Origin: Cyanidioschyzon merolae
Lineage: Eukaryota
Assembly (NCBI GenBank): GCA_000091205.1
Contig: AP006483.2
Strand: one strand, 5' to 3'
DNA length: 64,000 nucleotides
A model generated the notes under the pieces. The model saw only the letters and a list, made by a program, of their open reading frames with translations, was not told the origin of the DNA and searched no databases. Below are positions 9,974-54,420 of the stretch, in pieces; within the stretch, counting starts at the first letter, position 1; each line of letters starts with the position of its first letter. The translations under genes and the position numbers were made by a program.

Positions 9974-11299
9974 CTAGGGCAGCGGATGCTGACAGTGGTG
10001 ACGGTATCGAGCTGCGAAGCACCCGTCACGTGCGGTACGCCGCGGGAACCGTGCACGAGTTGCAGCGCGCGCGCGCGAAAAATGTGTCTTTCCTAGTACA
10101 GCGGAACAGAAACGAAAAGAGCTTGCATTTTCTTGGGATAGATTCTCTCCGATGCGGAAGCTGTCGATCGTTTCAACAACAAGAAACGTTCGCTTAAGTA
10201 TGCGTATCCAGTCAAAAACCTCTTTTGCGTAGCGGCACGAGTGATCGCCCGTCAATTGCCCAGAGTCCGAGCTAAATCTCCCGTAGATTGTCTAGCGTTC
10301 AGCGCAACTAGCACAAGCGCTCAATGCCTTTTCAGAAACTAGGCAGAACTCCGACCATTTCGAACAACAACTTCACCAGTACGTAGTGCCAAGGGTTCCG
10401 CAGTGCGGCGCTCAGAGATCACAACGATCGTAAATGGACTTCACCACAGCTCTCCGACGAATACCGTAGAGGAGGCATAAGGAAATTTCCTACGGTGCTC
10501 TGTATTTTTTGCAAACGTCTGCACGTCAGTTGGAGACTTCATGTCTAGGGCAGGTCATTCGGCATTATTGTACACCGCGGGCGGCAGCGTTTTTTTCAAA
10601 GGCATTCGTTGTTCGCTTTGTCGCTTCCGGGCTCGATGTTCGGGTTAGGCTCTTGAAACTAATCTTATAGAGTAGATCAGAATACAGTATGTGCTTTTGG
10701 CGGATGCCTCGGTCAAACGGAATGCTAAGTATAGACACTCTATGTATGCGATGCCTCTACCAAGATCACCGGATCCGGGAGAGTAGCAAGCACCATAACT
10801 TGGACAATGACGATAGCATGCAAATGGCTTGAACTGCCATCAGTACCAGCCTATGACGCAGGATCGAAGCACAATTCAGGTCAGTTCCTCATTGCAGCGT
10901 CCGTGCGGCATGCATAACAAGCATCACGAACAAACGTATATACGAGTTCAGGAACACTAACGTACCTTGTGTGGTTACGATCAATAAAACGAACGAAATC
11001 CCTAACGAGAAGATTGATGCATACCTCATCCAGACAACCGTAAGCCGCAGAGAACGCTACGCTTTTGATAGAAGCGTCGAGGGGTTTCGTGCCAGGCCCA
11101 ACAGCTCCATGTATGTCAGGGCGGTGCTGCGATGGGCAGTTGCGTCGGCACCAGCGACATAACCTCTAGCAAGAGACTGCTCTACGTGAGTTTCCGATCT
11201 ACGACACTTGACTTCCGCTGCAGCGCGATGCGAACACGCATGTGCCAAGGCGGTGCGTGGGACACGTGTCTTTCATCAATCGGGGAGGCGTCTCGCGCG

Positions 11300-14000
11300 G
11301 TGCACGCATCGCGCCGGTGAGCGCACCTGGGAGATCGGGCAGGCATGAGACACGACGTGTATGTCGCCGTTGATGGGAAACGTGATCTCGTTCAGAAGCG
11401 TGTTGTTCAGCTGTAAAAAGCTTTATTTGCGTTGGGGTCATAGCCAAGTGTAGTTTTCAGTCCATTTGTGTTTCAAACTTCAAACAAGTCTAGTCAAGTG
11501 TTTTTTCCCAGCATATACCACAAGCGTCCAAAGAGCGTTCTTTTTCAAAAAAAATAGGAAAGCTATGAAAAAGCAAGTCCACGATCCTGGAGGTCCAGTG
11601 TCGCCGGCTGCCAGAAAAAACAAAAACAATACCGAGCCCAGAAGATAAAGTAGAGAAAAAGAAGCAAATGGGGGAGGCCCCACGTCGAAGGCGGCAAGAA
11701 AGACAACTGGACAACGAGATGGTGGTTAAAGGCTGTCTTCTTAAAAATATCAAAGATTCCTAGAGGGAAAAGTTGGTAGACGCTATCAAAACACGTGTCG
11801 ACTCGTACTCCAAGAGCATTTTCAAGGCGTCGTCAGGACCGATGCATTTGGCGGGGGAGATGTATCGCGACGTGACGCACATCGAAACGGTCGAGATTCC
11901 AGACGAGTTTTTCGACGTGACCTTTATTCGTCACCTGATGCTTGGTACAGAGGAAGCGCGGATGGAAAATGAGCGGGTGCACGCCCTCCACGAAAAATAT
12001 CCCTCTTACAGCTTCGCGGGTACTCGAAACAAGGGGGACTGGAGTATTTACGACTATGGGGCGATGAAGTACCTCACGAATCTGAAGCAACATTTGACAA
12101 CGAACCTCGAATGTTTCATGATACGCGCCGTGGTTGCACTCTACCCGGACATCTCTCGCAAAGGAAAATCGGCGATTATCAATGGCATCAAGAACGATCG
12201 CAAGCATGAAGATGAGATCGAATTCGTCGGAGAGAAGGCGACAAACGAGAGCACAAAAGAAGCTTCTGTGATCCGTAAGGCTAGAGAAGAGCACCGAGCA
12301 CTCTTGGGTTGGCGAATCCAACAGAAAAGATATCAGAGTTGAAAAAAGATAAGGAAAGATACTATCGCCTCGTCCTGCGCTATTTCGTGTTTTTGGATCG
12401 TGAACTCAAACGCAAGGCGGAGATGAAGCTGAGTGGGGAAAAAATGAAGAGTGCGAGAGACGGACGGCTCTCCTAATGGGGAAGCGCTTCAAACAGTGGT
12501 TCCGTTGTGGAACATCAAGTCACATTTTGTGACTATCGATTCCAGAATCCTTCACGGCATCATGAAGTAGAACCGTCCGGATTTCAGTGTCAGCAGAGAC
12601 GATTTCTCCGGTGAAAATCGGGAAACGTACTGGAAGAATATCTTCGTTTCCGAACGTCTCAAAGTGAGCAAACAAAAGGTATTTATTGGGATGATCGAAA
12701 CCTATGGAGTAGCCATGTGTGTACACGATCGGCGCTTGAAGACAGATCGGACAGTTTCGTCCTCGGCTTCGCCCGCGACGAAGGATGAAGATGAGAAGAA
12801 GGCGGATCTTGCGACGCAGAAAGTGCACGAGAACAACATTGTCGTTGGTGCGGACCCCGGAAACACAAATATCATAAATATCGCAGCACCCAAGGGTGCG
12901 GAAGATCGCAATGACGGCAACTTTCGTCGGAAACACATGCGCCTTTTGAGGTTCTCGAGAGCGAGACACTATCTAGAATCCGGTATAATGAAGGCAAGGA
13001 AGAGGATTGACACGTGGAATGCAGGAGTGAAGGATCAGTTGGAAGCTTTGAACAAGGTGACGAGCTGAGGAGCGGACTTTGAAGTTTTTTGAAATTCATG
13101 GAAGCTCACGTTGCTCATTGGGAGACACTGTGGAAAAAGTATACCAAGCCCCGATGGGCCCGTCTGCGCACGAGTCTATAATGCGTGAAGCAGCGTGCAT
13201 TTGACAACTTTTCCAATTATTTGAACGCCCTAAAAGAGGATGAGGGTCAGAAGCTCGTTGTAGCGTACGGAGCAGGGCGCTGGATGACCCAAAAAGCGAC
13301 TGCGCCAGCTCCGTCAGCATGAAAGAACAAGGTGTGCGCAAGGCGTTTTGTTCCGAAACCGATAGATGAGTTTCGAACACCGTATACACACCATGAACTA
13401 GGCTGTACACTTCAAAGGGTCGTGATGGAAAAGTGCCTGCGGAGCCCTGAGGGTACAAAAAGTACGGAGCGTTGACGGAACAGCAAATGGAAAGCGGGCG
13501 AAAGTTCGAGGAATGCTTGCACTAGTGAGTACCGTAAATAGCAAGGAACGTGTGGAGTTTGTGAACCGAGACTTTAACTCTGCCATCAATATCAGACGGT
13601 GTGCAGTGATGTGGAAGAAACTTCCAAAGTTGACAAGAGAGAATTTTGTTGGGCAAACTCTCAAACTCGGACTATATGAGAAAAGAATGGAACCAGTAGT
13701 AGGAGGCCGGCCGAGAGCCTGGGAGGCTTCTGCACGTCAGTTGGGAACGTCTTGTCCAGAACGGATTCCTCGCCACTACTGTACACCGCGGGCGTCGTTC
13801 GACTTTTGGAAAGTGTTCGGTGTCAGGGGTGCCCACTCTAGACAACAACGATCGCGTGAACAGTTCATGTCCGTTGTGCAAGCATGGAGTCGCTTCAAGA
13901 GCTGGGCGCTGGGCCCGACTGGCCTGAAAACAACGCACGCTTGGGGGCCTATCTCGAACGCTGGTTTACCTTTGGCAGGTTTCGCAGACATTACGAAACC
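11300..14000 (+). mobile_element. TnpB/Fanzor-like element, copy 1 (degenerate); boundaries approximate
   Basis: Nucleotide homology to the 51.8-54.4 kb copy begins upstream of the ORF (about 11.3-11.5 kb) and fades past the C-terminal coding region (about 13.8-14.0 kb). Flanks differ between copies. Confidence 0.6.
11773..13830 (+). pseudogene. TnpB/Fanzor-like RuvC nuclease, interrupted (ORF pieces 11773-12342, about 12350-12640 in another frame, 12664-13068, 13513-13830)
   Basis: RuvC-I-like [17 protein letters not shown] (about 12848-12895). RuvC-III-like [15 protein letters not shown] (about 13555-13600). 60-70% aa identity to copy 2 across the N-terminal (IPDEFFD.TFIRHL.LGT), middle and C-terminal segments. 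Frame breaks fall at different places than in copy 2. Confidence 0.65.
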
Positions 14001-14625
14001 CCCCGAGAGTATCAGCGAAAACATGACGGCCGCTATGTGCATCTATTCGCTTCTTTTCATGCGGTTCGCGTGGCGAGTACAGCCGCGGAACTATCTACTC
14101 TTCGCCGTTCACTTCAGCAACGAGCTGATTCAGGCTTACCACTTGCAACGTATTTTGGGAGGATACGACTTTTACGCCGGAAAGTACGCCACTGCAGAAC
14201 GGGCCAAGTCTGAGGCTGTTCCGTCACCGTCGTCGTAGAACTCCCTGCAGATCCCCCGGAAGCATTCCGTTGGTTACCGTCATAAGCGGACGTGTTGTTG
14301 CCATATGGGAGCGAGACGCGGTGTCGTAAGCCTTGACTTGAATCCGAAACTTCTTCGACTCTTGATAGCGCACGAAGGTATGGAGCACTGCTGAGTCGAG
14401 GCCGAGCACCGATGCGAAACCAGCTTTGCGTTCGATAACGCAGGGTCCGCGCATTGCGCTTCTATCCGAATAGGATCATTTCTTAAATTTTCCGGATACT
14501 TCTGCAGATGATGCAAAGCACCTGACAGGGACGCTCTCTTGCACGGCTAACGTACAATATCAGGATCGCAAAACGTTAGCAGCGTCATGCAGCATTCAGC
14601 CTTGCCCCGCGATCATTCAGCAGTC

Positions 14626-18551: not shown

Positions 18552-19760
18552 TCAGATCGCATCGCCCAGATACCAATCCGTGGAACTATTCGAGTCCTCC
18601 GCATGCTGCCGAGCTCGATTAGTACTGTGAACGCGCGCTGCAGTCGCTGCACGCTGGTCCATTTCAAAGGCGGGATAGACGCCTTTGGGGTACGATAGTT
18701 TGCCGACCTCTCGAGCAGGGACCCCGCTGACAATCGTGTACGGCGGCACGTCCTTGAGTACCACCGAACTGGCCGTGATTTGAGCTCCATCGCCGATGCG
18801 AATATTCCCTAGAACCGTCGCACCAGCACCCAAAAGCACGCCACGGCCGACTTTAGGATGACGATCGCCAGCCTCTTTGCCGGTTCCACCAAGCGTGACG
18901 TTGTGCAGCATCGACACATCATTGCCCACAACAGCGGTTTCGCCAATAACAATGCCTGTCGCGTGGTCGATCATAACACCACTTCCGATCCGCGCTGCGG
19001 GGTGAATATCGACCGCGAAACACTTTGAGATCTCGCTCTGAAGAAAGAGTGCCAGAACTTTGCGATCCTGGCGCCAGAGCAGGTGTGCCAGTCGATAGGC
19101 CTGCAACGCAGCATAGCCCTTGCTATACATGAGCACCGCTACACAGTGTTTCATAGCGGGATCGCGGCGCACAACAGCGAGAAGATCCGCACGTATCGCC
19201 TCCCTATACGACTTGTCTTGATAAAGTGCGTCACGAAAAAGCTTCACGTATTGGGTTGCCTGAAAGAACGGTGAAGCAAGCTCATTCGCCAGATGAAAAG
19301 CCAGCGTATCCTCCAAGCATCGGTGGTTAAGTACCGTTGCGTATAGCGAGCTCGCAAGCTGCGGCTCGTTTGCAGCCCCTATCTCTGCCTCTCGTCGAAC
19401 GAGTTCCCAAACCGGGTCGCTCGAGTAGGTAAGCGTTCGAACCATATCGTCAACGGAAATCACAGGACCGAAACCTCCACCGATCTGCGGTGGTGACCCC
19501 AGCGGCCAGACAACTCTAGCCCCAACTGCAGCGCTGCGCGACGTTTCAGAACGTGTATCCGTTATGTGCTCGATGGCGGAATCGCGTGCCTCGGAAACGC
19601 CATCGTTGCTGGAACGGCCATGGCCCCGAACGTGCTGCAGGCGAGCGCTGCGCAGCGGACACTGCCCCCTGGAACGCACCCGTTTCCGAACAGACTGCAG
19701 CGCTCTGTGCGAAGGGTGCACACGCAGCGTTTGATACAATCTACCTGTTGTTGCGAACAT
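18552..19760 (-). CDS. cysE: Serine O-acetyltransferase (CysE family, left-handed beta-helix hexapeptide repeats) with N-terminal extension (putative organellar targeting)
   Basis: 402 aa. FAVDIHPAARIGSGVMIDHATGIVIGETAVVGNDVSMLHNVTLGGTG...HPKVGRGVLLGAGATVLGNIRIGDGAQITASSVV is a canonical SAT core. Upstream is the SATase N-terminal helical domain (YREAIRADLLAVVRRDPA). Confidence 0.85.
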   Translation of the reverse strand: MFATTGRLYQTLRVHPSHRALQSVRKRVRSRGQCPLRSARLQHVRGHGRSSNDGVSEARDSAIEHITDTRSETSRSAAVGARVVWPLGSPPQIGGGFGPVISVDDMVRTLTYSSDPVWELVRREAEIGAANEPQLASSLYATVLNHRCLEDTLAFHLANELASPFFQATQYVKLFRDALYQDKSYREAIRADLLAVVRRDPAMKHCVAVLMYSKGYAALQAYRLAHLLWRQDRKVLALFLQSEISKCFAVDIHPAARIGSGVMIDHATGIVIGETAVVGNDVSMLHNVTLGGTGKEAGDRHPKVGRGVLLGAGATVLGNIRIGDGAQITASSVVLKDVPPYTIVSGVPAREVGKLSYPKGVYPAFEMDQRAATAARVHSTNRARQHAEDSNSSTDWYLGDAI

Positions 19761-19849
19761 GTGCCACAGCGCAGTAGACGACTACGGACTCAGTGCTCCG
19801 ACTCCATAGATCGAGTAACACAAGCACTGGGCACCTTTCCGCGCCTCCG

Positions 19850-20870
19850 CGCTATCCAGGGACACGGCATCGATGCGTGCTGCGCATTGATGTCCAATAC
19901 ATACATGAATATACATATTCCTCCCATGTAGTTCGGAGGCTAGACGGCTGTCGCTATCCAGGGATACGGCATCGATGCGTGCTGCGCATTGATGTCCAAT
20001 ACATACATGAATATACATATTCCTCCCATGTATTTCGGAGGCTAGACGGCTGTCGCTATCCAGGGATACGGCATCGATGCGTGCTGCGCATTGATGTCCA
20101 ATACATACATGAATATACATATTCCTCCCATGTATTTCGGAGGCTAGACGGCTGTCGCTATCCAGGGATACGGCATCGATGGGTGCTGCGCATTGATGTC
20201 CAATACATACATGCATATACATATTCCTCCCATGTATTTCGGAGGCTAGACGGCTGTCGCTATCCAGGGACACGGCATCGATGCGTGCTGCGCATTGATG
20301 TCCAATACATACATGAATATACATATTCCTCCCATGTAGTTCGGAGGCTAGACGGCTGTCGCTATCCAGGGATACGGCATCGATGCGTGCTGCGCATTGA
20401 TGTCCAATACATACATGAATATACATATTCCTCCCATGTATTTCGGAGGCTAGACGGCTGTCGCAATCCAGGGATACGGCATCGATGCGTGCTGCGCATT
20501 GATGTCCAATACATACATGAATATACATATTCCTCCCATGTAGTTCGGAGGCTAGACGGCTGTCGCTATCCAGGGATACGGCATCGATGCGTGCTGCGCA
20601 TTGATGTCCAATACATACATGAATATACATATTCCTCCCATGTATTTCGGAGGCTAGACGGCTGTCGCTATCCAGGGATACGGCATCGATGGGTGCTGCG
20701 CATTGATGTCCAATACATACATGAATATACATATTCCTCCCATGTAGTTCGGAGGCTAGACGGCTGTCGCTATCCAGGGATACGGCATCGATGCGTGCTG
20801 CGCATTGATGTCCAATACATACATGAATATACATATTCCTCCCATGTATTTCGGAGGCTAAACGGCCTGT
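19850..20870. repeat. 102-bp minisatellite, about 10 tandem units with two alternating variants
   Basis: Unit cgctatccaggga[c/t]acggcatcgatg[c/g]gtgctgcgcattgatgtccaatacatacatgaatatacatattcctcccatgta[g/t]ttcggaggctagacggctgt. Period 102 counted from 19850, 19952, 20054 and onwards. It lies immediately 5' of the cysE-like start codon (19760). Confidence 0.9.
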
Positions 20871-22110
20871 GCTGGCAGCGCTACGCGGCGACTGTGTCGC
20901 ACAGCCGATGTACGGGCAGCAGGATTCCAGGGACGTGTCAGCAATTGGTTTGGCTGGGCGATGGACCTCAGCGCTTTCACAGAAAAGACCGGGTATAGCG
21001 TCAGCATCATCGTAAACGGCTGGCGATGACGGAGTTTGGCATGTGGTGCGCTCGTGCCGCCTGCGTTGCCCGTGCGGTTCATATTCGCGGGTAGTGCACG
21101 CGGTGGATGGAAGCGCTAGGTTGCTAGGTGCCCAGCCTCTGCAACAAGCTGCAACGTGTCCCAAGTACGGTCTCGTTTCGGGACAAGCGTCTGGGAGATA
21201 GCCAATGGAATCAATACGTGAGGCACCATGTCGCGCTTTGCTCTCGAAATGAACGAGCTCGGAGCGATAGCGGAGAGAGGGCCTAAGAACCCGATGCTGG
21301 CTTCGCGGCCGAAGTAGTAGAAAATGCGAAAGCGCATTGTCTTGGTCGGTTCACGCGATCTAGATTTGGTCTTTCGGCAAGTGCATGATGCCAAGATGCG
21401 GTACACTCGGACCGTGAGCATATGTCGACGAACCACAAGAATGAGCGGTGAATTTCGTGAGCGCTTCCCCATCGGCAATATCAAGCGCTAGCGAGTTGCT
21501 GGCTCTTGTGCATCTCTCAGTTTAAGCTGCATCCTGCGGACATGCATCCAATCGCTGTTGTTCAGAGAGGCGGCGCTCTGCCCGTAGACGCGGCATCTGT
21601 GCAGTGTGATACATCTGTGGCCACCTAGCAGACGCATGGACGACAGCGTCGCGTCGTCTACCCGGTGCTTGCGGGTCCAGGGCGCTGCGGCGAAGGCATC
21701 GTAGGTGTCCAAAAAGCCGCTGCCGGGGCAAGGCGGAGATCACCCTGACTACCGCCAGGATCCGACTTGACGGCACCCGCAGGACTTTCGCTGCTTTCGA
21801 TTCCCGGTTTCAGACTACGTGAGCGATGCTAGCCGAAACCGTATCCTGTGACGAAAAAGATGATCGCGCTCAGATCTGTTTTACACATCAGATCTATGTA
21901 TCCTTAAGAAGGGCGCTTTGCTCCGCATTCATTCGTGGGATGACATTGCGTTACAGATTCGACAATGAACCGCACGGCCTAACCTACATGGATCTTAACG
22001 TCCTAAAAATATCACCGAGACGTATGAGGAAGACCCAGGAGACCCGTTGCAACCAGGGACCAACGAAAACTTGGGGATACCCTCGGCCGTTGCAGTGAAG
22101 TGCACAAACG

Positions 22111-29079: not shown

Positions 29080-31449
29080 AGTGCCTCGATGCACCAGCCA
29101 TTCTCGACGTGAACGTCGTGCTCATCATTGGGGTCTTCGGCGTCGTACACGCCACCGTTGCTGCAACAATGAATGGCAACTCTACAGCGATCTAACGTTG
29201 AGGTTGCGCGTTCAAGTCTCGGCCTGGTGCAGAGCCCTGCAGACTCCCCCTGGAGGACTCTGTTTTTGGAGGCGTACATACAGGCAGGTTCACGCTCGTC
29301 GAGCATCCGGCACATTGCGCTTGGCACCCAGAGGGTACTGTTCGGTGGGGATCGGAAGCCTCACGGGCTATGTGGTGATCAGTGCGACAACGACGCCCTC
29401 GATGATGCCTGTAGCCAATGTCGCAGTGGCAGCAACAACAGTGGTACGCGTGATCCAGGAACAACGACGCGTTGCGGTAATTTTTAGAGTTCCCTCGGTA
29501 ACGTTTGCGCGGTATTGTGTTGGGAACTTCGCCCCGTTATCTGTGTTGAATTAGGCAGGCAGATTCCATGAGGCGACTCAAAGACCAAATGAGATTCCTG
29601 TTACATATATGTAGACGTTCTATGCGACCGAGGACGTGTGATCGTCACGGGTAGCGGACTCGGGGTGCTCTCGACATCATGCAGTGCCTGCCGAGATACT
29701 GCACTTCAGATAGGAGTCGTGGAACGTCTACCACAACCTCAGTCATATTCGAACACCATTCGCTATGCTATATGCGCTGTCCATACCATAGCTACCGAGA
29801 AAGCTCCTTGGTATCTGCAGGAGCTAGAGCCTCAACCCTAACAAAAAGTCCTACTGGATCGCCCGAAGATGACTGCGTAGTGCAGGAACACGTTTTCTTG
29901 TGCCGCTGGAGTGCGATAGCCCTAGATAGGCGGAACGTCGCCGTTTTGCTAGCTGTAAGTTCTGGTTACGCCGCTGGACCTAAATTTTTCGGGGAAATCG
30001 ACTGCTTCAAACTTCGTAACGATACGTTCTCGAGGTCCATGTTTACCAATCTGATCCATGCGTCCTTAAATGGCGTCAAAACGTGCCGTCTCTCGCAACG
30101 CGTCACCTGGATCCGTTTCGGAGACTTTAAGTGAACGTTTGCCTTGTCATAAACGGCTCTCCCCCAGTGCTCCATTCACCACTTGTTTCCCTCTAGGCAC
30201 TTGACACTGTCCGGCTGGGCAGGTACGTCGCACAACACCGACATGCTTGCAGGCCACGTACAGCAATTCGAGATAATTTTTATTCACCCCTGCTCTCTGG
30301 AATAGAAAGCTATTTCGCAGTGTTCAGCAGGTGATCGAAATCACGATACGATGCACTGCACTGATCGAAGACGAATTGTCTGTAGAGTATTTTATTTACT
30401 AAACATTGCAATCAGGACAACATTCCTGCTTCAAATCACCCATATCACAGTATTCAGATGGTTGTGGAACATTGAAAGCAAGAAGTATATGCGCTCCGTA
30501 ACAAGAACCAATATTCTTGAGTACTCTTTGCGGTCAATGGTAGAGAACGACCCGTTGATCACCCTAGGGAAAGCACGAGCGACGATGGTAGCCGGCATGG
30601 GCGTCTCAGTTTTCCAGCAGCTTGTTTGCGTGGTCCTGAAAACGCTGGGGTATAGTCGCAAAAAATGAGTCCTAGTTCAATGACGGCCACTGTCTACCGA
30701 AATCACATCTACAGCAAAGTTCCTGGAATCTCACTATCGGTCTGATGTACAGGGATGTCATTGTTTTCTACAGTCGATGAGACTTGCTTCGAATGAAACG
30801 GTCAGAGCTTATGTGGATATTTGCGGAGCAGGGAGCCCGTTGTTTGTACGATCGATTTCGAAGAGAGCGATCATATCGTTATTTGGTCAAGCTGCAGTGG
30901 ATTCAAGTGACGGCCTCAGTTTGGCTCGCAGAGGAGGCTCATACAGGAACACCATCCACTTTGTCGAATGGTTGAAGACTATCGCTTGGTGTCTGGCGAC
31001 GTGTTTCTATTGATCAGAGTGAGATTTCAGCATCCCCGTCGCGTTCGAGCCTTTGCGGATTGTATCGGGGTAGAGCTGCTTTTCATTCTTCCGTACACTC
31101 TATGATTCAACCGCATTGAAAGAGTGATTTTAACCTTGAAACGCAAATGTTCCACCACTGGGCGGATCTCGCGAAGCGATCAGCACACGGTGACATACCA
31201 GGGACACATATCGCCTTTCTTCTGATAGTGCGTCTCCCCGCGGGAAGTCTCTTCCCGAAGGCCGTAAATGAGAGCGTCCATTTGAGGAAATAAAAAATCC
31301 GAGGCAAGGTATGGACATGGAAGTCGAGGATCCCCGAGGGCCGTCAACGCCGGCTGCCCGACAAGAACAAATGAAAAAAAACAACATCTTCTCGCTGACC
31401 GTCGAGCGAAGGAGAGCAAGTGACTGAGGCGAATAAGAAGTAGAGGGCA

Positions 31450-31760
31450 GATAGGCGAGAAAATGTATTTGCCCAGCGGGACGATGACGAGACGCTGGTG
31501 GCACAGAGGCCATGAGTTCGAAGAATCCTTGCTTGCACTGGTGCTTCATCCAGAGGCAATAAACCTATGGTTTTCGTGAATCGTGACTTCAGAGCTGCCC
31601 TCAAACTGAGACGGTGTGCGGTACAGAGTACGAGACCCGATGAGCTGACGCGATCCAACTTCCTGGGGCAGCCTCTCAGGCTCGGAGTCTACGTGGAAAA
31701 ACTCAAATCGATAGCAGGAGGCAGGTCAAACAAGGCTGGAAGGCGTCTGGACACAGACAC
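31450..31760 (+). pseudogene. Fragment of a third TnpB/Fanzor-like copy (C-terminal RuvC-III region only, degenerate)
   Basis: MVFVNRDFRAALKLRRCAV...SNFLGQPLRLGVYVEKLKSIAGGRS parallels copy1 [18 protein letters not shown]...[25 protein letters not shown]. The preceding frame gives ESLLALV, matching RGLLALVST in copy 2. The NAAxNI motif has decayed to RAALKL. Confidence 0.6.
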
Positions 31761-31935
31761 AACTACACACACACATGTGTATATCCATATCCGCTCGGTC
31801 ATTATAGAACGTTTTCGTGGCATTGGATATCCATGCATCGCTGGTCGACGCTAGTTCAGGGTGCGGCGTTCCGCGAGCCGCTCGCAACCGGAAAAGTGTT
31901 TGCGTTCTCTGGTGCCAGCACGCTAACGATAGCAT

Positions 31936-33372: not shown

Positions 33373-33446
33373 CAGTGGTGCGGCATCGACGTCGTCGGTC
33401 GCATTATGGTGCGGATGTCCCGAATATGATCTTGAGTACCGCATTC

Positions 33447-34497
33447 GCGGTAGTAGCGAATCGCGGAATATCAGTATCGTTCCTGCAACCATTGCCCAGC
33501 AAATCCTTCCCAGTGTACCAGTACGGCGCTGTCGCCTTGGTGCAATGCTGAACACCACCGTACCCGTGCCAGGCTCCAGGCGGGAATCCAATGCCGTCTA
33601 TCCCGGGGTACGGATTCATTGGCATCGAAAGCCTTGCACATCCCAGCACAATGCCAATAACGTGTACCAAACAATCACCTTAGACGCCCGCTCGAGACAC
33701 AGCCGCTGGACGCCCCGAATGCCCCAGACTCTTCTTCCGAATGGTGATCGAGGTGTCCAGGTCTCGGTTCAGAGCGAAAACACTGGCCGGCACGGCGGCT
33801 ACTGGCATCACACCCTAGCAAGCATCTCACCAGGTCGAGTCCGTCGGTACATGACACTCGATCAGCTTACCGTACACCACAGAGTGTACCGGGCTCCGTT
33901 CTATCCGCATCTTGTCAGCCTGATTCAACGAGAACTCATGCTCGTAATGCAGGTATGTCGCCCTGGAGGCATCCACGGGTGTCTAACAAGAATCAGTCGC
34001 TGCACTTATCGTCCGGTCTCGTCCACGAGACGCGAATGGAGGCCACGCGCACTGCAACCCGTGCACCGTCACAGGCTACGACTCACAGAGGCGTCTTGCT
34101 AGTCACTTGGCTTCGTGCCGCTCACGGAATAAGTTCGTGAATGCACGCTCCTCGCTGCCGTACACGAGACGCAGTCTAGGACTCCAGCACTCTATCATGT
34201 ACGCCTGTCCAGGGATCGTCCGCAGGAGCCTGCGGGACGCTGAGGCACGCGCTGAAGCGCGGAATCCCTCGCATCAGTCTTCGTGTTTTTCGGTGGCATT
34301 CCGGTGAGCGGACAGCGCCTACATCAGGCGCGCTCCACACGGACTCGGTTACTCTTCTGGGTTTCGACTCTCGTTAGAAACGCTTTGGAGCTTGCCTCGA
34401 GTGTGCTGCAATCATTAGCATCGCTACTCGACGCGCCACTGTATTCGGGATCAGCTGGGCAACGTCGTTCGACGTGTTGCCAGCGTACTGCATCTCC
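33447..34497. repeat. Direct repeat copy 1 (about 1.05 kb, about 99% identical to 39274-40327)
   Basis: Starts right after the aminoacylase stop codon. Identity begins at ...cgcgg[t/g]a[g/a]tagcgaatcgcggaatatcag and ends at ...gttgccagcgtactgcatc. Embedded ORF translations differ at about 7 of 210 codons. Confidence 0.85.
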
Positions 34498-36499
34498 TGT
34501 CGTGAACGTTGGCTGCAGGGTCGCAACAGATCTCGATCAAAGTATTCCAGATACATGTGAGCAGCTGGTAGCTCTGGTCCTTCAATTCCGAAAAGCAATT
34601 GCGTGATAGAGGGCGGCATGCCAAGAGAAGCTGGGCAAGCCATCCTCGAATGACAATTTCCACGATTCCCAATGACGTGCGGAATCTCACGTTTTGGAGT
34701 ATCATCCCGGTTCATGTATCGAAGCATGGAGTTCTTGACAACGATTTGAGACTGGTGCTTGCGCACCCGCATGTCGCCGTTAGCGTCATTCCCCGTTGTT
34801 TTTTCGAGATCAGCCTTGTCTCCGTTGTGCGATGGTTTTCTGCTCTTTTCTCGTCTCCGCCTGCTCCTCACTTACTTGGCCAGGCAGCGTGGATGTGGTC
34901 GCTGGACTCTACACCCGACCTGGTTCCTCGCGATTCAGGTAGGCTCGATGGACAGCTGGGCTGATGCGTGCCCTCTGTATATACGTATGAATCTACTATT
35001 CATCAAATACCTTTTTGTCACCGTCTCCGTCGCGAGCAAGCCCAAAGACAGATGCGCATCATGCCGCTTCCCCGCAAGCCCGAGCAGCGGAGCGAGCAAG
35101 CGAGCGAGCGGTCCAAGACTGATCAAGGCAGAGGTCGGCTTGTCGGAGAACGGCTTCCCCATGGGTTTCGTTCCCACGAATGCGAACGACTGGTCCATTG
35201 ATCAGTGAACGTCAAAATGGCGTCACATAACAGCGGAGATGCTATCGACTTGATTGAAACAGGGATAACACGCTGGCTCGAAAAGCAGCTCATCACGAAT
35301 CTCAGCGATGTACTCCACGAGCGCGTTTGTGTGATGAACAGCGACACTGTCTTACAGCGGGACTCAGACGTATAGCGAGCAGCCGCCCCAGAATGTGCAT
35401 CGATGAGCGATGTGGTGTTGAGCGACTCTATCTGTCCAGGGATGTATAGACGAAGACGCGATTGACTCGCTGCTCGGGGATGCTGATGTCGATGCGCTCA
35501 CCTGCCCCTTCTCCACGAACCGTTGTGTGCTCAGTTTTGAGTACACGGATACAGGTCTCATCTCTCTCTGAAATGGACGTCCATCGAGTGAGACGAACAC
35601 CGGCCGTCGACTGGAAAACGCATGCGCGTTTCACTACGAACTCACTCACGTGATGCTCAACAAACGACAGTCTCTCAGGGAAGCACGTCCTTCTCTTTCC
35701 GCAAACGTGTCCCTCTATCACACGTTTGAACGAACGATACGGAAACGTTCATACGCTGGCTCCTTTGGAATTATTTCATGGATAACGGATGGAGTGAAAT
35801 TGATTTACGACAGGACAGTCACGCGTATACAGTTTGGTGCGTTCTGTTTGCGATGCCCGACATTCAACCCAGGGAGTTCGAGACGGGCGCTTCATCCACC
35901 ACCTGCTGACCGTAGAATGACTAACTTGCATCCGCAAGACAATTTTTAGCATCAGCAGCAGTGACAGCATAGAGTTTTTTCTGGCCTTTCCCCAATTCAC
36001 AGGATCCATTAGTTGCGTAGCATACCGTCGAGGAAAAAACAATAACGTCATATAGGGTGTACCGGTATCCACGGACCAGCATTCACTGCTCTGAACATAA
36101 CGCTTTGGACGGGCAGCATTCGTCATGCTAGCGTCCGTCTCACCTTAGATTCCAGCGATAAGCTTTGGCGTTCGTTCCGCGGACTGGAGCCGCTTTCTTC
36201 ACCATGACACCTTTCGGTAAACGCGAACTATTCGACGGGGCCAGTTACTCCGTTCCGCTGCGATATCAGAAAAAAGCAACACGCTCTACAGCGCGCAGGA
36301 TAGTACCTGGCGTCGACAAATCAAGACCTCGAAGCACGCGCACTCGCCACGAAGAGCCAGCAACCTTGATTTATATGGACTGAACAGTACAACGGCACAG
36401 CAAAGCGTGAACGTACCTCGAGCTGTACCCGATGAAGACTACTGCCTAACCGTACGAACCTCTGTAGTTTTTCCGTCGCCGCGCTGCGCTCTAACGAAA

Positions 36500-37060
36500 G
36501 CACCTGTGGACGCGTTTACACTCATTCAGCGTATGAGGTTCCAGAAGCACCGAACACAAACCCCAAATAAGCACCCCTGGCTAGCTCCGCATACTTCTGC
36601 GCTATTCCCGTGCGTACACTGCGCTTTGGGAAGCACCGGTGGACGCGTTTACACTCATCCAGCGTATGGGGTTCCAGAAGCACCGCACTCAAAACCAAAA
36701 ATAAGCACCCCTGGCTAGCTCCGCATCCTTCTGCGCTATTCCCGTGCGTACACTGCGTTTAGAGAAGCACCGGTGGACGCGTTTACACTCATCCAGCGTA
36801 TGGGGTTCCAGAAGCACCGAACACAAAACCAAAAATAAGCACCCCTGCCTAGCTCCGCATACTTCTGCGCTATTCTCGTATGTATACTGCGCTTTGGGAA
36901 GCACCGGTGGACGCGTTTACACTCATCCAGCGTATGGGGTTCCAGAAGCACCGAACACAAAACCAAAAATAAGCAACCCTGGCTAGCTCCGCATCCTTCT
37001 GCGCTATTCCCGTGCGTACACTGCGTTTAGAGAAGCACCGGTGGACGCGTTTACACTCAT
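36500..37060. repeat. 134-bp tandem repeat, about 4.2 units
   Basis: The core gcaccggtggacgcgtttacactcatccagcgtatggggttccagaagcaccgaacacaaaaccaaaaataagcacccctggctagctccgcat[a/c]cttctgcgctattcccgtgcgtacactgcg recurs at about 36508, 36641, 36775, 36909, 37043. It gives repeat-derived shadow ORFs on both strands. Confidence 0.9.
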
Positions 37061-38230: not shown

Positions 38231-39273
38231 ACGACTGCGGTTTTTGTCGGGCGTGGGTGCATACTGAGCTAGTGCGCAGGACAGCGTGCCGGCATGACGC
38301 TGCTTCCAAACTCGACGCTTGTCTCGTATAGTCGAAGATGCTGATCCGAACACTGGGCGTCCTATGGCTCCAATACGGGAACCAGATCGATTCGAATGCA
38401 CACGAAGGTGCTGCTGTGTGCACCAGAAGTTTCCCTCCTGCCAGCATGGGAAACGAGGATATGCTATTTAGCCTGATCATCGCGCAGAAGACATGCAGGG
38501 AGCATCACGCTCGACCGCAGATACCCAACTCCTACAGACAGACCGAACCAGGAAACAGTATGTGATTGCTGCTTCTTGGCACATGCAAGCGACGATGAGC
38601 ACGATAGCGCGACACGGGTCTTGGATTCTTTGGCACAGTGTGTGTCTCGCCAAGCTGTGTATCAGGCATTGGCAAAGCAGCAGTCACGCCAAAACCTGTG
38701 TCCCGAGTCACACTCTTGCGGCAGGTCGTGCTCGCGTAAACGGTTTCAGCTCTAACACGTTTCCGAAGTTGGAATCGTGGCAGATACGCATACTTGCAAA
38801 AACTTTCATCCATTGCGTCGCGCCTTGGTAAAGTAACGTAGCGTTGCTTTCGGTCCGAAAAAGCGCCGAGACGATGCCGTCGTCAAGACTCATACATCAT
38901 TCCAGAATATGATGCAGCGAGCGTGACTTGCCTCATTGCGCTGTGGATGGGTCATCAGTTAGCGCTGATCCACGTTCGGATGGAACCTAGAGAGGGCGCG
39001 TCGCGAGCGCAGCGCAGCCTGGGCGCCAGAGCCGCTGTCCAACACAAGGAGCGTGCAGCCTCGCTTGTATTGTCTCCTGAGAGATCTGCGATATGCGCAG
39101 CTCGCACGGCTCAACGATACAAGGCGCAAATATTAAGAGGAAAGAGCGAGCAGGTACAAAGCCCGTATCCGACAGCTACGGATTGTAGAGCGAAAAGATG
39201 GGATTCAAAAGGAAATTAAAAAAGAGAGATGTGTCGTTATAGAAAATATTCCGCAACCACGCCTCCATGCCTA

Positions 39274-40327
39274 TACGCGGGAATAGCGAATCGCGGAATA
39301 TCAGTATCGTTCCTGCAACCATTGCCCAGCAAATCCTTCCCAGTGTACCAGTACGGCGCTGTCGCCTTGGTGCAATGCTGAACACCACCGTACCCGTGCC
39401 AGGCTCCAGGCGGAAATCCAATGCCGTCTATCCCGGGGTACGGATTCATTGGCATCGAAAGCCTTGCGCATCCCAGCACAATGCCAATAACGTGTACCAA
39501 ACAATCACTTTAGACGCCCGCTCGAGACACAGCCGCTGGACGCCCCGAATGCCCCAGACTCTTCTTCCGAATGGTGATCGAGGTGTCCAGGTCTCGGTTC
39601 AGAGCGAAAACACTGGCCGGCACGGCGGCTACTGGCATCACACCCTAGCAAGCATCTCACCAGGTCGAGTCCGTCGGTACATGACACTCGATCAGCTTAC
39701 CGTACACCACAGAGTGTACCGGGCTCCGTTCTATCCGCATCTTGTCAGCCTGATTCAACGAGCACTCATGCTCGTAATGCAGGTATGTCGCCCTGGAGGC
39801 ATCCACGGGGGTCTAACAAGAATCAGTCGCTGCACTTATCGTCCGTTCTCGTCCACGGGACGCGAATGGAGGCCACGCGCACTGCAACCCGTGCACCGTC
39901 ACAGGCTACCACTCACAGAGGCGTCTTGCTAGTCATTTGGCTTCGTGCCGCTCACGGAATAAGTTCGTGAATGCACGCTCCTCGCTGCCGTACACGAGAC
40001 GCAGTCTAGGACTCCAGCACTCTATCATGTACGCCTGTCCAGGGATCGTCCGCAGGAGCCTGCGGGACGCTGACGCACGCGCTGAAGCGCGGAATCCCTC
40101 GCATCAGTCTTCGTGTTTTTCGGTGGCATTCCGGTGAGCGGACAGCGCCTACATCAGGCGCGCTCCACACGGACTCGGTTACTCTTCTGGGTTTCGACTC
40201 TCGTTAGAAACGCTTTGGAGCTTGCCTCGAGTGTGCTGCAATCATTAGCATCGCAACTCGACGCGCCACTGTATTCGGGATCAGCTGGGCAACGTCGTTC
40301 GACGTGTTGCCAGCGTACTGCATCGCT
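39274..40327. repeat. Direct repeat copy 2 (about 1.05 kb)
   Basis: See copy 1. There is a purine-rich stretch (aaaaggaaattaaaaaagagagatg) about 50 bp upstream. Confidence 0.85.
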
Positions 40328-44298: not shown

Positions 44299-44497
44299 GA
44301 ACTTAGTAAACTGCTATGATGCAGGCACTCAAAGCGTTCTAGGAACAAAGCGGTTGCGACAAACGTCTGAGCACGAGAGTCGACGTCCGCGTCGCAGTAC
44401 GCGCCGCAGACTGCTCCGCAGCGGCGACGTCCTCTGACTGCTTTTGTTACGCTGTTGACTGGAGTGCTGCTCGCGCTCGGTGTGAAGCACCTGAACG

Positions 44498-44610
44498 GAC
44501 GGACAGACAGACAGATAGATAGAGAGGCAGAGAGGCAGACAGACAGACAGACAGAGAGGCAGAGAGGCAGACAGACAGACAGAGAGATAGATAGAGAGGC
44601 AGAGAGAGGT
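44498..44610. repeat. (CAGA)n/(GAGAGGCA)n compound microsatellite
   Basis: gacagacagacagatagatagagaggcagagaggcagacagacagacagacagagaggcagagaggcagacagacagacagagagatagatagagaggcagagagagg. Confidence 0.9.
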
Positions 44611-51759: not shown

Positions 51760-54420
51760 TATCGTGACGTTGTCGAGCAGGCGTGCGCTGCGCCTCAGGG
51801 CGTGTGCTCCAGAGGCAACGCCAGTGCCGATTGGTGCCGGCGCACCGTATACCGCACTCAACTGAAGCGTGTTCCACACAAAGGTGTGTGGAAGTCGATG
51901 CTTTTTTCGTTGTATGTAGCAGACGCTATCGCAGGTCGTTCATTAGACGTGATAAAAAAATCTAAGGGAATGGTATGGGGGTGCTATGCGGAAATCCCGG
52001 AAGGCTTTCATTGCCGGGTTGAACAAAACTGGAAAGCCGTGCCGAGCATAGAGGAACGGGAAAGGACGATGCAGCAGAAGCAATCGCGCGAGGCCGGACG
52101 TTGAAAAGGATCTCGAAAGACGACAGTACGACGGGATGGTGGTGAAAGCCTCTTTTCTTGGCCATAGCTAGTATCCCTACAAAAAAAAGTTACGAGAAAC
52201 GATCAGAAACCTTGTCGAGTCGTATTCAATGAGTATTATTGAGGCTTCTTCGGGACTGGTGCATATGGCGAAGGAGATGTACGACAATGTGACGGACATT
52301 CGAAGAGTCAAGATTCCGGACGAGTTTTTCGACAAGACCTTTATTCGTCACCTTGTGCTTGGTACAGGGGATGCGCGGGGTGAAAATGAGCGGGTGCACG
52401 TCCTCCACGAAAACTTTGCAGAATTCCGCTTCGAGGGTAATCGATACAGGGGTGACGCGGATGCTTACATATACGGGGCGATGAAGTATCTCACGAATCT
52501 GAAGAACCATTTGACAATGAACGTCGAACGTTTCATGATACGCCCCGTGTTTGCACTTTACGCGGGCATCTCTCGCAAAGGAATATGGGCAATTATCAAT
52601 GGCTTTACAAACAATCCCCAGCATGAAGATGAGGTTGAATTCGTCGACAAGAAGGCGTCACACAGGAGAAGGAATGAAGCTTCTGTAATCCGTGCGCCTA
52701 CTAAAGAGCACCGCGCAGAATTGGGACTGGCGAATCCAGCAGAAAAGATATCAGAGTTGAAAACAGATACGGAAAGATACTAATATCTCATCCTGCGGTA
52801 TTTCGTGTTTTTGGACCGCGAGCTCGAACGCAAGGCGGAGATGATGCTAAGTGAGGAAAAAATGAAGTGCGGGAGAGACGGAAGGCTTTCCGAATGGGGG
52901 AGCGCTCCAACATCGTTCCGTTGTGCAACATCAAGTCACATTTTGTGCGTATTGATTCCGGCGTCCTTTACGGCATCATGAAGGGGATCTGTCCGGGGTT
53001 CGATGTAAGGAAGACAGAGTTCTCCGGTGAAACCCAGGAGACGTACTGGAAGAATATCTTCGATATCAAACGTCTCAAAGTGAGCAAGAAAAAGAAATTC
53101 ACTGGGATGATAGAAACTGATGGACTAGCCATATGTGTACACTATCGGCGGTTCAAGACAGATCGGCATGTTCCGTCTTCGGCTTTGCCCGAGACGAAGC
53201 ATGAAGATGAGAAGGAGGAGGATCCTGCGATGCAGAACGTGCAGAAGAACGACTTTTTCGTTGGCGCGGACCCCGGGAACACGAACATCGTAACCATCGC
53301 AGTACGCAGGCGTGCGGAAGATGGTACTGATGGTACCTTGCGTCGGAAAGAAATGCGTCTATTGAGATTCTCTAGAGCGAGATACGATCGAGAATGGGGA
53401 ATCATGAATGCGAGGAGGAAAATCGAGACTTGGAATGCAGGAGTGAAAGAGCACCTGGAAGCTATGAGCGAAGTGACGAGCCGCGAAGCAGACTTGAAAG
53501 CTTTTCGGGAGTCCATGGAAGTTCGCGTTGCGCATTGGGAGGCGCTGTGGGCGGCGGAGTATACAAAGCCCCGGTGGGCTCGTTTGCGAATGAATTTGTA
53601 TTTTGGGAAACAGCGTGCATTCGCGAATTTTTTTTCAATGAGTTGAGCGCCTTGAAGGAGGATGAAAGTCAGAGGCTCCTAGTAGCATACGGAGCAGGGC
53701 GATGGAAGATCCAAAAAGAAACTATGCCAGCTCCAACGACGAGAACATTCAAAGAGTGCGCAAGGCGCTTCGTTACGATACCTGTAGATGAGTTCCGAAT
53801 GTCCTACACACACCATGAACTGGGATGTACACTTCAGAACGTCGAGATGGAAAAGTGCCAGCGGAGCCCTGAGGAGGATATAGCAAAATATGGACCGCTG
53901 GCGGAAGAGCAAATGGAAAGGAGAGCGAAAGCTCGAGGACTACTTGCATTAGTAAGTACAACCAACGATGGCAAGAAACGGATGGAGTTTGTGAATCGAG
54001 ACTTGAACGCCGCGATCAATATACGGGGATGGGCGGTGATGGAGCATAAACCTCCAGACAGGACAAGAGTGAACTTTATCGGACAATCACTTCAAGTCGA
54101 ACTATATGAGAAAAAGTTGAAACCAGTAGTCGTTGGCCGGTCCAAAAAACTGGGAGGCGTCTGCACGTCACTTGGAGACTTCTTGTCTAGGGCAGGCTTC
54201 TCGCCACTATTGTACCACTGGCAGCAGCGTTTGTCTTTTGAAAGGCGTTTGTTGTTGGAGGTGGGCGTGAACGAAGGCCACTGTGAAAAGTCTGCGTCAA
54301 GTCGCTTTTTCTTTCGTACTCCCAGGCCTTCTGCAGCTGAGCAAACTACTGAACCGAGCGCTTAGGGCGACTCGGGTTTCTGTGAGAGGCAGCCCGCGGT
54401 TGGTATCATGGTGCGGCACA
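51760..54420 (+). mobile_element. TnpB/Fanzor-like element, copy 2 (more intact); boundaries approximate
   Basis: Homology with copy 1 starts in the GPAT9 5' flank (about 51.78-51.9 kb: ctgaagcgtgttccacac vs cagaagcgtgttgttcag). It runs past the end of the coding frame to about 54.3-54.4 kb (e.g. ctgggaggc[g/t]tctgcacgtca[c/g]ttgg...ctcgccacta[t/c]tgtac). Confidence 0.6.
52229..54365 (+). pseudogene. TnpB/Fanzor-like RuvC-family nuclease (IS605 OrfB/TnpB superfamily), about 700 codons across three frames; either disabled or intron-containing
   Basis: ORF pieces are 52229-52783, 52867-53646 and 53394-54365. RuvC-I-like [17 protein letters not shown] (about 53255-53305). A helical Arg-rich segment [16 protein letters not shown] Zn-finger-like PVDEFRMSYTHHELGCTLQNVEMEKCQRS. 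RuvC-III MEFVNRDLNAAINIRGWAV (about 53982-54038), i.e. the D-x-N-A-A-x-N-I hallmark. A TAA stop follows ...KTDTERY at 52781 (copy 1 reads ERYYRLVLRY through). Frame switches occur near 52905 and 53640. Confidence 0.65.

Follow-up and report, generated by a model that had tools for sequence, protein, structure and literature searches.

What is the short stretch of Fanzor-like sequence directly upstream of an aminoacylase gene in Cyanidioschyzon merolae, and how did it acquire its present form? It lies in a stretch of 64,000 nucleotides that was analysed as a whole (the window; all positions are counted from its first letter), in which two longer copies of the same kind of sequence occur at some distance on either side. 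A reading of the letters of the window, made from the sequence only, had described it as the third insertion of one family, reduced to about 300 bp. Five proteins encoded in the window are exact matches to proteins of C. merolae 10D, and the gene downstream of the fragment encodes the “probable aminoacylase I” BAM78735.1 (exact protein match). Our results indicate that positions 31247-31752 are most probably a dead, internally deleted copy of the Fanzor1 repeat of C. merolae (the WSV486-like repeat or CMe-1A). This explanation builds on homology, anatomy, a deletion shared with a second copy, absence from the sister genus and a neutral level of polymorphism, all of which were observed directly.

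The homology of the fragment was established at the DNA and the protein level. A DNA profile built from 21 full copies of the element (2,846 positions) matches 31498-31752 of the window on the + strand at profile positions 2415-2669 (nhmmer, E = 2e-27), and in a six-frame search of the window 31516-31698 aligns with positions 611-668 of the 673 positions of the family protein HMM, i.e., over 58 collinear positions (E = 3.2e-14, 49 bits). The same piece is found with the intact homolog P0001 (tblastn, E = 3e-11), is 66% identical over 242 nt to the first long copy (31515-31752 versus 13503-13735; blastn, E~1e-8) and was tied by a repeat scan of the window (31553-31725) to 13538-13710 and 53968-54140, where the two members of a 2.2-kb repeat pair have their 3' ends. 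Further upstream there is another piece in collinear order, in which 31270-31371 corresponds to profile positions 300-399 (nhmmer, E = 3e-8); with a longer 5' profile its start is found at 31247 (E = 7.5e-9). Matches were detected by blastn at ~25 loci for the 3' piece and at ~18 loci for the 5' piece, the best of the latter being L013 (83%). The peptides read from the letters are indeed present: ...EFEESLLALVLHPEAINL in the frame of ORF 31463-31579 and MVFVNRDFRAALKLRRCAVQSTRPDELTRSNFLGQPLRLGVYVEKLKSIAGGRSNK in that of ORF 31567-31854, in which MVFVNRDFRAALKLRRCAV...SNFLGQPLRLGVYVEKLKSIAGGRSNK is also read. Since the first two are in the frames of different ORFs, a frameshift lies between them.

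That this likeness arose by chance and is confined to the RuvC-III motif has a practically negligible probability. The shortness of the conserved motif is the one point in favor of such a reading; against it stand the DNA match over 255 nt (E = 2e-27), the 58 protein positions (E = 3e-14) and the independent match of the 5' piece (E = 3e-8). The likeness is, therefore, not limited to a motif of ~15 amino acids but comprises the 255-nt match and, in addition, a collinear 5' piece. The sequence-only reading was thus right in assigning the fragment to the family of the two longer copies, as nhmmer, the protein HMM and blastn all bear out, and in regarding it as collinear with their C-terminal RuvC-III region. 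It underestimated what is left, which is not ~300 bp but ~505 bp (31247-31752), made up of a 5' and a 3' piece.

The 5' piece (31247-31497, + strand) comprises the leader, the start-codon region and a decayed N-terminal coding stretch that reaches approximately ...DE[M/T]VV. An ATG at 31311 opens a 38-aa ORF that reads MDMEVEDPRGPSTPAARQEQ... where the consensus reads MKKQVDDPGGPGSPAARKKQ..., and 31379-31439 is 78.7% identical to the 5' piece of another locus, L018 (profile 217-453), while the assignment of 31440-31497 to the 5' piece was made by eye only. The piece runs to a patch like ...DEMVVK, after which the sequence jumps to profile position ~2415. The junction of the internal deletion is located within 31475-31500 (+ strand), where profile ~455-505 is joined to ~2400-2415 and ~1.9 kb is gone; around it the two parent regions look alike over a short distance (…GACGAGATGGTGGTGAAAG versus …GACGGAAGAGCAAATGGAAAGG), which makes a base-exact placement impossible. 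The 3' piece (31498-31752, + strand), recovered by nhmmer, protein HMM and tblastn, is the decayed C-terminal coding region around RuvC-III. It reads …LLALV…, then, after the frameshift, …FVNRDFRAALKLRRCAV…NFLGQPLRLGVYVEKLKSIAGGRS…, and has its terminus at …GGCGTCTG.

The RuvC-III motif of the fragment is NRDFRAALKL. Its catalytic motif had been said to have decayed to RAALKL, which holds for the part that reads NAAxNI elsewhere in the family but not for the RuvC-III aspartate, which is retained and aligns with the invariant Asp of the family (D725 of P0001). In all, what the fragment keeps of the 5' part is the leader and the start codon with some 40-55 codons of the N-terminal end, joined to the last ~80 codons; it is ~73% identical to the consensus, with a frameshift and stops. 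RuvC-I and RuvC-II are gone through the ~1.9-kb internal deletion. Also missing are profile ~60-285 towards the 5' end and, towards the 3' end, the ~110 nt with which the element closes (the “tail”, ~25 nt inside which the consensus ORF has its stop codon), and a check of the flanks for homology to the element ends showed that neither canonical end is kept. As RuvC-I, RuvC-II and the tail with the true stop codon and a terminal hairpin are lacking, the fragment cannot encode a nuclease, and with the tail any 3'-terminal RNA module has been lost. A 95-aa ORF (31567-31854, + strand), which runs from the RuvC-III remnant into flanking DNA, occurs as a “hypothetical protein” of automated metagenome pipelines only; it had no NCBI source or accession in our look-up and is probably a spurious gene call.

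The family to which the fragment belongs had been presented as a discovery, but it has been described from C. merolae before (PMC3627910, PMC1955436). Nozaki et al. (2007; PMC1955436) reported 253 copies of a “WSV486-like” interspersed repeat with a mean length of 3.2 kb, which carries a truncated ORF resembling the WSSV protein WSV486 and is transcribed; its copies are randomly distributed over all chromosomes and account for about 5% of the genome. Bao and Jurka (2013, Mob DNA 4:12; PMC3627910) reclassified this repeat as Fanzor1 “CMe-1A”, with about 150 copies of ~3 kb that are about 80% identical to the consensus, without TIRs, with TSDs undetermined and with 5' 635 bp that equal TE-N2_CMe. 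Both the family and its Fanzor1 nature have thus been published and the locus studied here is one more dead copy. Our assignment to CMe-1A rests on the host genome, size, copy divergence, the Fanzor1 ORF and the published description: the genome is the same, the repeat measures ~2.5-3.2 kb and has a single TnpB-like ORF, no terminal inverted repeats were found, copies are ~80% alike (77.5% for the long copies in the window), the extra ~650-nt 5' part of some copies fits the published 635 bp, and the fragment matches the profile of family copies as given above. It differs from CMe-1A as described in being a deleted derivative of an older, divergent sub-lineage and in stopping ~110 nt short of where the main lineage has its 3' end.

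The relationship with the Fanzor nucleases was examined using intact relatives. The frame-corrected translation of the second long copy leads to intact homologs from hot-spring metagenomes, e.g., P0001 (752 aa, 61% identity), and a family profile made from an alignment of 13 intact homologs matched only two among all PDB sequences, i.e., PpFz1 (9cf0, E = 6.4e-8) and SpuFz1 (8gkh, E = 4.5e-7), with alignments that pass through the RuvC-II (dEfrTS) and RuvC-III (nrD) motifs. D484, E656, and D725 (P0001 numbering) of RuvC-I, RuvC-II, and RuvC-III, respectively, are invariant in the 13-sequence alignment. The corresponding VGADPG, VDEFRTS, and NRDFNAAINI are visible in both long copies of the window, while the fragment keeps only the NRDF context; the TnpB/Fanzor hallmarks of the long copies include VDEFRxSYTHHELGC and FVNRDxNxAINI, with stops interrupting copy 1 and frameshifts copy 2. 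When an AF2 model of P0001 (pLDDT 68.8, pTM 0.54) was compared with the PDB using Foldseek, the top seven matches were all Fanzor structures (SpuFz, PpFz, and GtFz; E 1e-14 to 1e-11, TM 0.4-0.57), followed by Cas12f, Cas12h, and Cas12i with E-values of at least 0.02. The sequence profile thus confirms the family as Fanzor1 and the predicted fold confirms it as Fanzor. In precomputed data the only Pfam label of the family is DUF8286; a Pfam search with the decayed ORF pieces and the intact homologs gave no match, and for P0063, a distant member, a match to Cas12f1-like_TNB (E = 8e-5) fell short of the curated cut-off.

Intact family members share the D-E-D triad, profile similarity and fold with SpuFz1 (8GKH), PpFz1 (9CF0), and GtFz (9CER). 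Unlike these Fanzor1 nucleases, CMe-1A proteins appear not to possess the CxxC...CxxC cysteines of the zinc ribbon (…DEFRTSYTHHELGC…RGLLALVSTT…): CMe-1A-type proteins read DEFRTSYTHHELGCTL...EKCQ...RGLLALVSTT, without paired CxxC between RuvC-II and RuvC-III, and the distant member P0063 reads DEYLTSQCCWRCH...FCDSRTCGC. Judging from these sequences, the zinc ribbon of CMe-1A may be degenerate or may use other ligands. The fragment differs further from these nucleases in that the RuvC-III neighbourhood is all that it has of them.

The description of the three insertions as being at “different stages of decay” implied that a full-length element had inserted upstream of the aminoacylase gene and was then eroded in place to a C-terminal stub. 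The state of the copy is compatible with this, since it is heavily mutated (~73% to the consensus, with a frameshift and stops), and both long copies in the window are likewise pseudogenes. However, its 5' and 3' pieces meet at one clean internal junction, and L018 has both the deletion and the 3' stop in common with it. This locus belongs to a sample of 81 loci with relatives, about 0.6 Mb and thus part of the genome, in which only these two copies have the deletion in common; most of the 81 loci are probably paralogs that come from C. merolae-type genomes, as confirmed for L018 and L082-L086 only. On the minus strand of L018, profile 217-453 is followed after 14 nt by profile 2415-2666, so that the internal join and the 3' stop are common to L018 and the window copy (2415-2669). 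The junction consists of GAGACGCTGGTGG joined to CACAGAGG in the window versus GAGACTGTAGTGG joined to CACAGAGG in L018, and the junction 13-mers are identical at 10 of 13 positions. The G3PDH gene neighbouring L018 is identical at 687 of 689 positions to C. merolae BAM80805.1, located on an 859-kb chromosome, while the window is on the 422,616-bp chromosome of C. merolae 10D; the counterpart of L018 is thus on another chromosome.

Over the 3' piece the window copy and L018 are 72% alike, each being 72-73% identical to the consensus. Because both are ~60% identical to everything over this piece, a count of shared derived states replaced the comparison of distances. The two copies share 34 derived states in 242 aligned nt, three-fold more than the 11.3 expected under independent divergence from the consensus; for comparison, the window copy shares 4 with copy 2 and 15 with copy 1. 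The presence of the same junction and 3' stop on another chromosome and the excess of shared derived bases indicate that the deletion is older than the arrival or separation of the copies. It seems, therefore, unlikely that the fragment was eroded in place, and the window copy probably arrived already deleted. Recurrent, independent deletion in the similarity patch of the junction is conceivable, but the shared derived bases and the shared 3' stop argue against it.

Two further loci, L056 (1592-1741, corresponding to profile 2517-2666) and L013, also show an excess of derived states in common with the window copy and L018. Pieces of this group are ~60% identical to main-lineage copies, which are ~81% identical among themselves. 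The excess of shared derived states indicates that the pieces of the window, L018, L056 and L013 form an old, divergent sub-lineage. The window copy, L018 and L056 all stop at …GGCGTCTG against three unrelated flanks, and this position looks like the genuine 3' terminus of the sub-lineage, not a random truncation. Their 5' ends differ (profile position 217 or lower in L018, ~290 in the window). Two other ideas concerning the 3' end were discarded: a sub-lineage-specific 3' tail beyond 31752, based on a motif seen by eye, gave alignment scores equal to those of shuffled controls (p = 0.17-0.59), and a hairpin near profile position 2660 (H1), considered as the cause of a fragile breakpoint, was no stabler than its shuffles (median z -0.4).

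The copies with the shared deletion may owe their spread to a larger block that was segmentally duplicated or recombined ectopically, and not to transposition, a possibility that we regard as serious but clearly minor. Blocks of this kind recur: the block with a POR-like gene upstream of copy 1 is found at ~80% in L033, L070, L071, L074, L005, and L061, a 1,052-bp duplication at 33443/39273 is recent, and ~890 nt of the 5' flank of the window copy (30392-31283) is shared with L013 at 70% identity. In contrast, the window copy and L018 have unrelated flanks on both sides (no relatedness was found for either the 5' or the 3' flank), and the common end point of the window copy, L018 and L056 is a position in the element. 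The element piece of L013 is contiguous (profile 2320-2490) and has an internal structure unlike that of the window copy, which means that L013 is not another carrier of this junction. Sharing its flank with L013 but its deletion with L018, the window copy requires recombination, gene conversion or an unsampled intermediate. The ~890-nt block itself is unrelated to the flank of L018 (p = 0.69), and the idea that it is a diverged 5' part of the element was dropped, as a profile of the long 5' part gave no match.

We thus favor a history in which a single deletion event, probably between two short look-alike patches, would have created the shortened element, which would subsequently have reached at least two loci, on different chromosomes, through mobilisation in trans or through duplication. 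The product resembles the MITE-like, internally deleted non-autonomous derivatives of DNA transposons, in that a single internal deletion connects its 5' region with its 3' region and at least two such copies exist at different loci. It differs from them in that it does not keep both canonical ends of the parent, the 5' ends vary and only two copies are known. No TSD or TIR was seen at the deleted copies; the family has been published as being without TIRs (PMC3627910).

The boundaries of the main-lineage element bear on how such copies may be made. Coverage of copy 1 by the sampled loci places the main 5' boundary at ~11300-11360 and the 3' boundary at ~13790-13830. A minority of copies reaches further in the 5' direction, to 11105, 10868, 10704, or 10645, and these longer extents fit the published 635-bp 5' module. 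Main-lineage copies thus end uniformly on the 3' side but extend to different points on the 5' side. The ~110-nt tail follows the end of the RuvC-III coding region in nearly every locus. RNAalifold revealed no global consensus structure for 26 3' ends; the last ~65 nt of the tail form an exceptionally stable hairpin (median z -2.2, with 57% of the copies below -2, versus a median z of -0.2 and 12% below -2 for coding controls), of which the stem is, as judged by eye, kept in each of two sequence variants of the tail. A fixed 3' end with variable 5' ends would, if it applies genome-wide, point to copying from the 3' end. One could thus speculate that in these TIR-less and TSD-less Fanzor1 elements, including the ~0.5-kb non-coding “mini” derivative, copying begins at the 3' end, with mobilisation in trans by the non-LTR retrotransposons of the alga or a rolling-circle-like mechanism as candidates and with the ~110-nt hairpin tail as a separable module gained in the main lineage. 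We consider this rather unlikely, but, if true, it would offer a first handle on the movement of this unclassified Fanzor1 family. Followed across the genome, the constant 3' ends, the varying 5' ends and the copies with a common deletion could show how the family spreads.

The arrival of the fragment can be placed by comparison with relatives. Synteny with Cyanidiococcus yangmingshanensis is conserved around the locus (Sec1, aminoacylase, a polyketide-cyclase-like gene, and TSR1), but in that species the spacer between Sec1 and the aminoacylase gene measures 704 bp (2,857 bp in the window), and searches of this orthologous spacer with the DNA and the protein profiles gave no Fanzor signal. 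A more distant relative (L088) also has no Fanzor sequence. The deleted copy may, consequently, have entered the Sec1-aminoacylase spacer once the C. merolae and Cyanidiococcus lineages had separated, or it may have been lost in the latter, and has presumably been subject to neutral drift since. In the five C. merolae-type contigs the fragment is always kept (98.6-99.4% identical to the window). Its proportion of variable sites (2.16%, i.e., 11 sites) is that of nearby intergenic DNA (2.0-2.4%), coding sequences showing 0.9-1.7%.

With polymorphism at the intergenic level, an ORF known from pipelines only and no match to any Rfam family in the window, we conclude that the fragment is neutral debris; that it has no present function is deduced from polymorphism at no more than 11 sites. 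It is very unlikely that the remnant has been co-opted, be it as promoter, 5' UTR or regulatory DNA of the aminoacylase gene 184 bp downstream, as a 95-aa or 38-aa peptide or as a small RNA. Its fixation in all five contigs sampled, its location directly 5' of the aminoacylase gene and the transcription of the repeat family (Nozaki et al., 2007; PMC1955436) would be in line with such a role. However, its polymorphism equals that of the flanking intergenic DNA, the 95-aa ORF leaves the element into unrelated DNA and yielded no NCBI record in the look-up, Rfam gave no match, and the ortholog in Cyanidiococcus has its 704-bp spacer without the element.

The window contains more Fanzor-derived sequence than the three insertions counted previously, i.e., at least five pieces and a solo 3' tail. 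Copy 1 (11236-13832, + strand) is a pseudogene with several in-frame stops, a RuvC-II region reading VDEFRTPYTHHELGC and its 3' tail at 13729-13831; copy 2 (51893-54281, + strand) is a pseudogene with two frameshifts. By local BLAST the two (11660-13831 and 52076-54263) are 77.5% identical over 2,191 nt. The solo 3' tail (10512-10632, + strand; profile 2657-2777, nhmmer E = 4e-17) is of the main lineage and is found a short way 5' of where copy 1 begins at its longest extent; the block around it was duplicated together with it in L005, L033, L053, and L061. Just downstream of the aminoacylase gene, a fourth, much diverged Fanzor1 remnant occupies ~33644-34829 on the minus strand, with collinear N- and C-terminal pieces (34521-34829, corresponding to HMM positions 4-106, E = 5e-6; 33851-33979, E = 1.5e-3; hmmsearch). 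It is closest to the P0050/P0052 subfamily (tblastn with P0052 589-697, E = 1e-8) and has a partial duplicate at ~39474-40016 (minus strand), which is due to the recent 1,052-bp duplication (33443-34494 and 39273-40324, 98.7% identity). The view that this region is a chromosome-end sink for the element finds no support: the published distribution is random, three copies are no significant excess and no telomere repeat (AATGGGGGG) is present in the 64-kb window. With 253 copies in 16.5 Mb, ~1 copy per 64 kb is expected and the Poisson probability of at least three is ~0.08, before correction for post-hoc selection.

The importance of the locus is limited, as the repeat was reported in 2007 and identified as Fanzor1 in 2013. 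Debris of this kind has enlarged the intergenic spacers of the aminoacylase gene approximately four-fold relative to Cyanidiococcus. It also affects annotation, since pipelines call spurious or chimeric proteins over Fanzor remnants, as illustrated by the 95-aa ORF. Other such automated calls are fusions: one of 241 aa combines a Fanzor C-terminus with a mitochondrial pyruvate carrier, and another of 801 aa involves G3PDH.

The main-lineage Fanzor1 copies, compared across the fetched loci (L001-L081) and the window (10645-11360 and 13790-13830), share a single 3' end, while their 5' extents are graded and fall, in the coordinates of copy 1 (the long pseudogene at 11236-13832), at 10645, 10704, 10868, 11105 and approximately 11300-11360. 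The combination of variable 5' ends with a fixed 3' end is unusual in a cut-and-paste element and may have a bearing on the mechanism by which these elements transpose. The window also contains a solo copy of the ~110-nt main-lineage 3' tail (10512-10632; positions 2657-2777 of the DNA profile of full copies, E = 4e-17). It is separated by ~700 bp from the main 5' boundary of copy 1, downstream at ~11300, and directly adjoins the longest 5' extent of that copy (~10645). This arrangement recurs in four other loci (L005, L033, L053, and L061), with conserved sequence to the left of the tail. Since the old-lineage copies end at …GGCGTCTG, where the tail begins, the tail acts like a module that is separable.

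At the 3' extremity of the element, the final ~65 nt fold into a stable hairpin (13770-13830, 54200-54265 and the tails of ~68 loci), with a median dG of -23 kcal/mol and a z of -2.2; a GT-rich run comes after it. By eye, the stem is kept in both sequence variants of the tail, …CGTTCGAC-TTT-CGAACG… and …CGTTTTTC-TTTT-GAAAGGCG…. The hairpin is a candidate for a structure, of RNA or DNA, that marks the terminus.

A highly diverged Fanzor1 remnant (33644-34829, minus strand) lies directly downstream of the aminoacylase gene, so that this gene is bordered by Fanzor debris on both sides. Its nearest subfamily is that of the proteins P0050 and P0052 (~27-32% amino acid identity). A partial second copy of this remnant (39474-40016, minus strand) stems from a recent 1,052-bp duplication (33443-34494 and 39273-40324, 98.7% identical). 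Directly 5' of the fragment upstream of the aminoacylase gene, a stretch of ~890 nt (30392-31283) is 70% identical to L013 189-1070 (minus strand), which also adjoins an old-lineage Fanzor remnant, although one with an internal structure unlike that of the fragment. Compared with the known 5' part of the element and with the flank of L018, the copy that shares the fragment's internal deletion, this block proved unrelated to either. Further upstream, window positions 30298-30377 match L018 8170-8249 in an orientation inverted relative to the fragment.

Host DNA has also been copied. A short-chain dehydrogenase gene resembling protochlorophyllide reductase is found again, together with the DNA around it (7591-11300, including the minus-strand ORF 8915-9973), at ~80% identity beside Fanzor copies in L033, L070, L071, L074, L005, and L061. 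The repeat and host DNA have, therefore, been duplicated together, in blocks no shorter than 3 kb.

Decayed Fanzor C-termini also affect gene calls. One ORF continues from such a C-terminus into the mitochondrial pyruvate carrier gene (BAM78729.1; window 13513-14238) and another into a G3P dehydrogenase gene (L018 4143-6548), which explains chimeric proteins of 241 and 801 aa in metagenome pipelines. In the NCBI/UniRef record, the aminoacylase ortholog of Cyanidiococcus yangmingshanensis (VWRR01000020.1, L087 5001-6437), which has Peptidase_M20 domains and shows 70% identity, bears the name “adenylate cyclase”, probably a misannotation.

Within the Fanzor ORF, a segment of ~72-79 nt is tandemly repeated, with a unit number that varies among copies (e.g., window 12774-12853 and L001 7221-7374). 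The intact homolog P0001 carries several KHEE…DPATQ(E/K)V(Q/E)DND(L/F)(V/I)VD repeats immediately ahead of RuvC-I, a region predicted to be disordered in the AlphaFold model (residues 373-471). The window carries three further kinds of repeat, at 19748-20965, 36498-37060, and 44490-44609: ten near-identical 102-nt tandem units within long ORFs that overlap, a 134-nt unit repeated 3-4 times in tandem, and a microsatellite of GACA/GAGG, to which some weak, spurious HMM matches are due.
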